Below, in pieces: positions 22,484 to 22,558 of a DNA stretch of 64,000 nucleotides (position 1 is its first letter; each line of letters begins with the position of its first letter). A program made the position numbers and the translations under genes. Below the pieces are notes generated by a model. The model did no database searches, was not told where the DNA came from, and saw nothing but the letters and a program-made list of their open reading frames with translations. The stretch lies in IMG/VR virus record IMGVR_UViG_3300023174_000034; one strand, given 5' to 3'. The stretch is from a virus (Duplodnaviria; Heunggongvirae; Uroviricota; Caudoviricetes).

Positions 22484-22558
22484 ATGAAATGGTCTACACC
22501 AACTGCAAGCGACATGCGTTTCGGGTTCGAAATCACTATGTACATTGCAAATCGTTAA
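22484..22558 (+). CDS. pqqA: PqqA-like precursor peptide (24 aa: [24 protein letters not shown]).
   Basis: AGGAG RBS 7 nt upstream. Matches the PqqA family pattern W-x-x-P...D-[LM]-R-x-G-F-E-[VI]-T-[LM]-Y-x-[AS]-N-R with the Glu-x3-Tyr crosslink pair. Terminator follows. Confidence 0.5.
   Translation: [24 protein letters not shown]

Follow-up and report, generated by a model that had tools for sequence, protein, structure and literature searches.

The 64,000-nucleotide (nt) stretch of the tailed-phage record IMGVR_UViG_3300023174_000034 (called the window here) carries a gene for PqqA, the peptide precursor of pyrroloquinoline quinone (PQQ), and this gene stands apart from those of the enzymes that process the peptide. 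The open reading frame (ORF) is located on the plus strand at positions 22484–22558 and comprises 24 codons followed by a TAA stop. An earlier note on this DNA had placed the ORF between an AGGAG ribosome-binding site (RBS) and an intrinsic terminator, and both were found there. We propose that the phage peptide probably replenishes the consumable of PQQ synthesis for the PqqB–E enzymes of the host, which would sustain PQQ-dependent dehydrogenases during infection.

An ORF of such size is uninformative alone; 177 ORFs of at least 20 amino acids (aa) occur within 9 kb of the window. The assignment is made because the family match goes beyond chance, which the presence of the ORF alone does not. 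The peptide scored 36.1 bits in a search with the Pfam profile PF08042 (gathering cut-off 21.1, E 6.1e-9) and 37.8 bits with the NCBIfam equivalog TIGR02107 (cut-off 20, E 1.2e-9). We estimated about 1,260 small ORFs for the window, and the E-value corrected for this number is still near 1e-6 to 1e-5. A degenerate DNA pattern of the PqqA core gave a single match in the window even at two mismatches, and none in 100 shuffles. By both curated models, the ORF is a bona fide pqqA, in agreement with the identity proposed in the earlier note.

Residues E16 and Y20, in E-x3-Y spacing, are the equivalents of the Glu16/Tyr20 pair that is joined by PqqE in M. extorquens. PqqE cross-links these two residues while the chaperone PqqD holds the N-terminal leader of PqqA (PMC10906245). 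The leader motif W3-x-x-P6 is also present. The pair and the motif, both of which the note had pointed out, are invariant in 60 viral peptides (see below), W and P even though the search pattern left their positions free. Among the bacterial matches listed, the closest PqqA is identical at 23 of 24 residues, and its gene is directly upstream of pqqBCDE. The window copy resembles the Albidiferax/Rhodoferax operon copy in its length of 24 aa, the W-x-x-P motif, a 15-residue core, the E-x3-Y pair and a downstream terminator; it differs in being phage-encoded and in having no pqqB, C, D or E downstream. It thus shows the curated scores, the E-x3-Y pair and the small peptide with its own RBS, start and stop that mark the family, but not the adjacency to pqqB/C/D/E, which is usual and not obligatory. 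The missing neighbors do not exclude membership because functional orphan copies exist in bacteria. The genes pqqA3–5 of Hyphomicrobium denitrificans are likewise solitary, lie apart from the processing genes and act in trans (PMC9851590). Such bacterial copies are chromosomal and share a genome with pqqBCDE, whereas the phage gene would have to rely on the enzymes of another genome.

The lack of pqqB, C, D and E in the window, also claimed in the note, was borne out by tblastn searches. Queries from Acinetobacter and Albidiferax gave no match to PqqB, C, D or E in the window at E≤1e-3. This negative is meaningful because the same queries detected pqqBCDE beside pqqA in approximately 100 of 120 bacterial loci, at 35–65% identity. 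No PqqB–E was found by tblastn in about 235 viral pqqA loci, of which the second set alone amounts to 913 kb. The search of 50,697 phage records gave no true PqqC or PqqE, only mislabelled contigs and radical-SAM proteins of ≤28% identity in unrelated phages. As this negative covers Melnitz, Venkman, P19250A, MEP301/401/402 and MW202481, all of which carry pqqA, complete pqqA-bearing phage genomes are without pqqC and pqqE. Pfam and PHROG scans of the larger window ORFs, which did not extend to every small ORF, revealed no PQQ-pathway enzyme, radical-SAM protein or quinoprotein dehydrogenase. Two apparent exceptions were set aside. The contigs filed as 'Acinetobacter phage MD-2021a' (CAKLQF020000010.1 and CAKLQH020000055.1; L005 among our loci) carry entB, fur, ppk and pqqABCDE and look like bacterial chromosome contigs filed as phage. 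The single IMG/VR contig with PqqC recovered by an alignment-based scan (L246, IMGVR_UViG_GVMAG-S-1026894-104_000001; 10.7 kb, giant-virus bin, 51% identity) is without the pqqA pattern and may be contamination or a real acquisition.

The gene is widespread in phages. When the peptide was searched by tblastn against the phage records, matches were obtained in the complete genomes of all cultured lineages of Methylophilales phages, namely Melnitz (four isolates), P19250A, Venkman, MEP301, MEP401 and MEP402, and in one uncultured podovirus-type genome (MW202481). The ORF is intact, from its RBS and ATG to the stop, in Melnitz (24 aa) and in P19250A, Venkman and MW202481 (23 aa each). Most viral copies lack an annotation. 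The gene is unannotated in the records MZ577095–98 (Melnitz), MT375522 (Venkman), KX815270 (P19250A), MW452941, OP830906/7 and MW202481; those of Melnitz and MW202481 have an ORF of the opposite strand annotated in its place. In three metagenome contigs, L247–L249, the gene callers leave a gap of approximately 310 nt exactly over pqqA. PHROGs has no family for PqqA, nor for the HExxH protein, rubrerythrin or rubredoxin described below. Evidently, a 75-nt ORF falls below the size that gene callers report.

IMG/VR was scanned with two patterns. The degenerate pattern D/E-[LIMF]-R-x-G-[LIMF]-E-[VIM]-T-[LIMF]-Y gave at least 120 contigs, and the pattern of the window's own C-terminus at least 120, of which 112 were new. 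The earlier note had named the lack of a significant PqqA profile match and a lack of conservation in related phages as points against its proposal. Neither applies: both profiles match, and the two scans together gave at least 232 distinct viral contigs with pqqA, which is also kept in the window's own lineage. All matches of the first scan end an ORF of 23–26 codons, in which the ATG precedes the Trp by one to three codons and the stop follows the Tyr by four or five. The 115 unique viral DNA sequences all encode the Trp and, by way of four codons, the Pro, at positions that were free in the search pattern. Between R and G, the unconstrained residue is Phe in 109 sequences and Tyr in 6. Asn is found in 111 of the 115, and Arg in all 115 over all six codons, though the pattern also admitted Ser codons. 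Every one of the 60 unique viral peptides matches TIGR02107, and W3, P6, R12, G14, F15, E16, T18 and Y20 are invariant in them, partly by construction. Judged by its codon pattern, viral pqqA is under constraint at the protein level, that is, purifying selection.

The same picture was seen in the lineage of the window. The loci L248 and L249 are identical to it over the 311-nt cassette. The pqqA of L247 has four synonymous changes and I17V; that of L117, whose proteins are 82–96% identical over 15.5–24.5 kb of the window, has three synonymous changes and S9T. The total is thus seven synonymous changes vs two conservative replacements. L117 is without the window genes 20378–20824, 21917–22371 and 22683–23132, yet it retains pqqA, and in L247 the gene is retained where the GDSL-like gene has been replaced by others. 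In the more distant contigs L266 and L272 the order BPL_N, 76-aa gene, rubrerythrin, GDSL-like, pqqA, SWIM protein, ligase is preserved at 40–60% protein identity. The gene has therefore long resided in this family of phages and was not acquired recently.

These observations make it very improbable that the ORF is a non-functional passenger, either a recent scrap of host DNA or a chance ORF. Such a passenger could well be very short, missed by gene callers and without a PHROG family, as is the case here; it would not be expected always intact in so many viral contigs of several unrelated phage types, with synonymous changes in excess of conservative replacements and in the same syntenic slot where its neighbors have diverged. 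There is also no pqqB fragment or other host flank alongside. We find it barely credible that the locus is not a gene and serves as an integration or recombination target through phage attachment site (attP)-like homology to the host pqqA locus. Several carriers are indeed small siphovirus-type genomes with recombination functions near pqqA. However, a complete gene with RBS and start codon is carried and not a 3′ fragment, its DNA drifts at synonymous sites under a conserved peptide, and the nearest bacterial DNA among the matches listed is identical at only 57–59 of 69 bases. Both Melnitz and the phage of the window are T4-like, and the window ORFs scanned, which were not all of them, included no integrase.

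The preferred reading, replenishment of the precursor, draws on the chemistry of the pathway. The cofactor is built out of the PqqA peptide, and PqqA is the only part of PQQ synthesis that is consumed stoichiometrically, with one peptide destroyed per cofactor, while PqqD (the chaperone), PqqE (the radical-SAM enzyme for the Glu–Tyr cross-link), PqqB and PqqC act catalytically and persist. The phage PqqA would be expressed in infection; host PqqD would bind its W-x-x-P leader, host PqqE would join E16 to Y20, and a host protease, PqqB and PqqC would complete the cofactor. PQQ would then load periplasmic quinoprotein dehydrogenases, namely the XoxF/MxaF methanol dehydrogenase or other PQQ alcohol or sugar dehydrogenases, so that respiratory energy for phage production may continue after host transcription is shut off. 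The demand for the peptide can be seen in bacteria. In K. vulgare, the pqqA mRNA is about 1000-fold above that of pqqB–F (PMC10520945). Methylotrophs often have several pqqA copies, including solitary ones that rank among the most expressed; of the three solitary copies in Hyphomicrobium, one is highly expressed (PMC9851590). Multiple pqqA genes are also cited for Methylovorus sp. MP688 (Ge et al. 2015, cited in PMC9851590).

Several points weigh against this reading. Over-expression of pqqA alone left the PQQ yield of K. vulgare unraised (PMC10520945); the precursor is thus not generally limiting in uninfected cells, and the benefit must stem from the infected state, which we assume. In the literature pairing pqqA or PQQ with phage, viral or auxiliary metabolic gene (AMG) terms, no expression, transcriptome, PQQ, burst-size or fitness data were found for a phage pqqA. 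The search patterns force part of the apparent conservation of the gene. A scan at ≥9/12 gave no convincing sigma-70 promoter upstream of pqqA, and there is no good −35. The genome is probably much larger than the 64 kb of the window, and for the remainder the absence of pqqB–E is argued from relatives only. Finally, the host pointer discussed below rests on a motif-fixed bacterial scan with 120 matches listed.

The K. vulgare result leads us to read the role as maintenance in infection and not as a boost. The note had suggested that the phage supplies extra precursor as an AMG. The AMG role is the best-supported function and is retained as a prediction, while the idea of boosting is replaced by one of maintenance, as the literature suggests (PMC10520945). 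Two features expected of an AMG are present: a homologue of a host gene, at 23/24 identity, is kept under selection in at least 232 viral contigs, and the flanks of pqqA are viral on both sides (rIIA/rIIB on one, the ligase and MazG-like genes on the other, with virion and tail proteins farther along).

The note had also offered the opposite direction of effect, in which the peptide is a decoy or inhibitor. A PqqA look-alike would tie up PqqD or PqqE and halt PQQ synthesis, with the payoff that SAM (S-adenosylmethionine) and reducing power are saved or that formaldehyde and H2O2 are limited. A stand-alone gene with a strong RBS and a terminator could be highly expressed, the data at hand do not measure the direction of the effect, and added PqqA fails to increase PQQ in K. 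vulgare (PMC10520945). In a decoy, however, the reactive pair is expected to be lost or altered, while E16, Y20 and all family-invariant residues are kept in 60/60 viral peptides; the window peptide differs at a single residue from a genuine operon-encoded substrate, and a true substrate in excess does not inhibit its own pathway. We therefore disfavor the decoy and regard it as improbable.

A bacterial scan with one genome per species, using the C-terminal 15 residues of the window peptide, gave 120 matches listed. Among these, only betaproteobacteria of the Burkholderiales/Rhodocyclales type were seen, that is, Rhodoferax/Albidiferax, Polaromonas, Limnohabitans, Hydrogenophaga, Limnobacter and Thauera. 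The 23/24 peptide was found in L134 and L172 (metagenome-assembled genomes, MAGs, of Albidiferax) and in L212, and the best DNA matches listed are from low-GC freshwater Comamonadaceae/Burkholderiales MAGs. The third-position GC content (GC3) of phage pqqA is 0.43 vs about 0.5–0.6 in the bacterial copies. Viral leaders of the window type are mostly W-T-[TK]-P, as in Methylophilales phages, and those of Comamonadaceae are W-[QE]-x-P. The host is probably a freshwater betaproteobacterium, Comamonadaceae-like or of the Methylophilaceae, as far as these matches indicate. Pelagic Methylophilaceae, the hosts of the cultured carriers, depend on XoxF, a PQQ methanol dehydrogenase (PMC6794327). As a separate observation, Limnobacter (nine loci) has a second solitary 24-aa pqqA besides the operon copy, with no pqqB within the 8-kb locus.

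A related question is whether PQQ would be made for a purpose other than methanol oxidation, namely phosphate solubilization by glucose dehydrogenase, or redox protection together with rubrerythrin and rubredoxin. Viral pqqA, pqqD and pqqE have been classed as phosphate-solubilizing AMGs (PMC13188868). The window-type peptide is nearest, among the matches listed, to those of Comamonadaceae, Limnobacter and Thauera and not of obligate methylotrophs. Of 235 viral loci, 29 have a rubrerythrin homologue close to pqqA, at a median distance of 122 nt, and in the window a rubredoxin gene adjoins it. On the other hand, the hosts of every cultured carrier are obligate methylotrophs, which require a PQQ methanol dehydrogenase for their core metabolism, the rubrerythrin linkage may reflect only the shared ancestry of one phage family, and no PQQ-dependent enzyme was seen among the window ORFs scanned. 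We consider such a purpose rather unlikely.

Viral pqqA itself has already been reported, and the window is a further case in which the identity is well supported and the function predicted. The Lake Baikal viral population VP_266, a predicted Methylophilaceae virus, carries PqqA and a methanol dehydrogenase, and the same function was proposed (Coutinho et al. 2020, PMC7678222). Unlike VP_266, the window has no methanol dehydrogenase candidate, and no PQQ-dehydrogenase domain was seen among the ORFs scanned, which were not all of them. In a 2026 study of reservoir sediment, the phosphorus-cycling genes listed include pqqA, pqqD and pqqE of viruses (PMC13188868). Within the literature defined above, these reports are passing mentions, and none deals with prevalence, cassette structure, selection or regulation; pqqA is unmentioned in the isolate papers of Melnitz and MEP401/402.

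Methanol and other alcohols enter the metabolism of abundant betaproteobacteria of fresh and marine waters (OM43, LD28, Comamonadaceae) through PQQ-dependent dehydrogenases. Were phages to sustain PQQ synthesis during infection, viruses would have a direct influence on the oxidation of C1 (one-carbon) compounds and alcohols there. The case would also illustrate a rule for viral gene borrowing, in which the consumable is taken and the catalysts are left. Cyanophage psbA, which encodes the D1 protein, is the model AMG, and its function during infection has been experimentally established. As with psbA, the virus carries the fast-turnover or consumed part of a host energy system and borrows the rest. 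The parallel is confined to the logic, with unrelated proteins, pathways and hosts, and the role of phage pqqA is a predicted one. Surveys of viral metabolic genes undercount pqqA because standard annotation misses it, as seen in the gene calls of L247–L249, in PHROGs and in the GenBank records of cultured carriers. The hypothesis is open to a direct test in cultured pairs of carrier and host (Melnitz and Venkman on OM43 strain H5P1; P19250A on LD28), although the published medium has 1 nM PQQ, by which a phenotype could be masked.

On the evidence of its parts, pqqA is a self-contained cassette made of an upstream element, a −10-like box, an RBS, the 24-codon ORF and a terminator (Table 1). 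An RBS of the GGAG/AGGA type precedes the ORF in nearly all viral pqqA copies. The terminator, AAAACCCTTG-TTGAT-CAAGGGTTTTTTT followed by a U-run, has a folding energy of −20 kcal/mol compared with a shuffle mean of −12.3 (z = −2.86). Its stem is kept in L117 and L247, while the loop varies (TTGAT, TAAAT, ATCTA). A simple terminator scan gave no call at 22583–22610, apparently because the U-run pairs with an upstream A-run. An Rfam scan found nothing at the pqqA locus. At the position aligned to the hexamer TACACT, L247 and L008 read TATAAT, whereas TACAAT is found in both L065 and L084. We tentatively assign TACACT and CATACATAC as the −10 and start region of a pqqA promoter. Two other promoter candidates were rejected: a TTTACC-17-TACATT promoter, judged by eye, reaches only 8/12 and has its −10 broken by a 1-nt deletion in L117, and the spacing of a sigma-54 promoter upstream of bacterial or phage pqqA was inconsistent among loci on inspection.

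Table 1. Features of the pqqA cassette and selected genes of the window.
Feature	Position	Strand	Description
rIIA	8749–10941		upstream of pqqA
rIIB	10925–11770		phrog_609, E 3e-83; upstream of pqqA
Conserved upstream element AGAATCATGAAATTCAGTATGTGATTT	22388–22414	+	inverted-repeat-like; candidate operator/activator site of the pqqA promoter
−10-like hexamer TACACT	22430–22435	+	conserved CATACATAC next, 22439–22447; candidate −10/transcription start region
Shine-Dalgarno AGGAG	22473–22477	+	6 nt before ATG; kept in L117 and L247
pqqA	22484–22558	+	24-aa PQQ precursor, stop included; predicted cross-link E16/Y20, leader W3/P6
Intrinsic terminator	22583–22610	+	CCCTTG/CAAGGG stem lengthened by A/U pairs, loop TTGAT, U7 tail
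ATP-dependent DNA ligase	23840–25222		downstream of pqqA
MazG-like gene			downstream of pqqA
Virion structural protein	53990–57121		phrog_5838, E 3.5e-213

The upstream element suggests that the cassette may be regulated. In the window, AGAATCATGAAATTCAGTATGTGATTT is followed by a spacer of approximately 15 nt, TACACT and then CATACATAC. Alignments showed that the element is near-invariant between the window and L117 and common to L247, L065 and L084, and the layout [AC]ATG-N8-[GT]AT followed by a −10-like box recurs at about 100 further viral loci. Of 118 unique regions upstream of viral pqqA, 60 contain the core ATGRTTWT vs 0.04 expected per region, with its sites clustered 71–90 nt before the pqqA ATG; 47 of 108 loci of the second viral set also have it. 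The core is seen in both siphovirus-type and myovirus-type contigs. In the 64-kb window it has a single mismatch-free occurrence; the only other site has two mismatches and is inside a coding region, and the element was therefore rejected as a general promoter class of the window phage.

A similar palindrome, for example CCATGAATTGCGCATGG, is present upstream of Comamonadaceae pqqA in 25 of 112 regions vs 0.02 expected, at −116 to −109. It has the form CCATG-N7-CATGG, about 110 nt upstream of pqqA in L131 and L134, for example. Strict homology of the phage and bacterial elements is not claimed, as the half-site spacing is N8 in one and N7 in the other. A common origin is nevertheless plausible, and the resemblance of the two suggests that the phage copies retain a putative regulated promoter of the host type. 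We know of no regulator for this element. A further reading, which we consider possible but less likely than not, is that pqqA is a regulated module acquired or retained by many unrelated betaproteobacterial phages, wired into the PQQ-regulatory circuit of the host by the operator-like element and paired with rubrerythrin–rubredoxin in one large family, and that it is among the most widespread yet overlooked phage metabolic genes.

The rubrerythrin gene of the window (20903–21367) is followed by one for a 44-aa rubredoxin (21367–21501). The linked loci include L065, L084, L266, L272, L304 and others, and their rubrerythrins are only about 41% identical. The rubrerythrin protein is encoded on contigs of up to 0.2–1 Mb. 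The linkage could stem from common descent within a single phage family, or the two genes could be paired in function, for example in peroxide handling around PQQ synthesis. Downstream of pqqA, the product of the gene 22683–23132 is a multi-pass membrane protein of 149 aa that contains an HExxH motif (HESLH) and has no Pfam or PHROG match. It is preceded by a near-consensus TTGACC-17-TATAAT promoter with a TG extension (region 22625–23132). The gene is present in L247 and L249. L117 does not have it, and there this promoter serves the gene that follows. A link of this protein to the peptidase step of PQQ maturation would be pure speculation.

By its gene content, the window is part of a large T4-like tailed phage. 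The best relatives of its virion structural protein are in T4-like cyanophages, with 43% identity to that of Synechococcus phage S-CAM1, and a 2255-aa protein carries a tail-protein domain. The GC content is 45.3%. A search of positions 20000–26000 against the 50,697 phage records gave no near-identical DNA and thus no close sequenced relative among them. The one Rfam match of the window is a permuted (two-piece) transfer-messenger RNA (tmRNA) at 15481–15932 (RF04321, 96.6 bits vs a cut-off of 47). ARAGORN likewise calls it, with a long and odd tag peptide, and its type might help to assign the host. The ORF 16226–16960 on the minus strand encodes the N-terminal domain of a biotin–protein ligase (BPL_N, class-I glutamine-amidotransferase-like), and this gene is kept in the pqqA syntenic block of L117, L266 and L272. 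The window also has an unusual load of genes for the modification of envelopes or small molecules, at 3727–8064, 18301–20211, 26360–27091 and 39691–40635. These comprise an APS-kinase-like protein fused to a second domain with an adjoining unknown gene (minus strand), an AMP-binding (acyl-adenylate) enzyme, a calcineurin-like phosphoesterase, a GT4 glycosyltransferase, a DXD glycosyltransferase and a Nol-like carbamoyltransferase.

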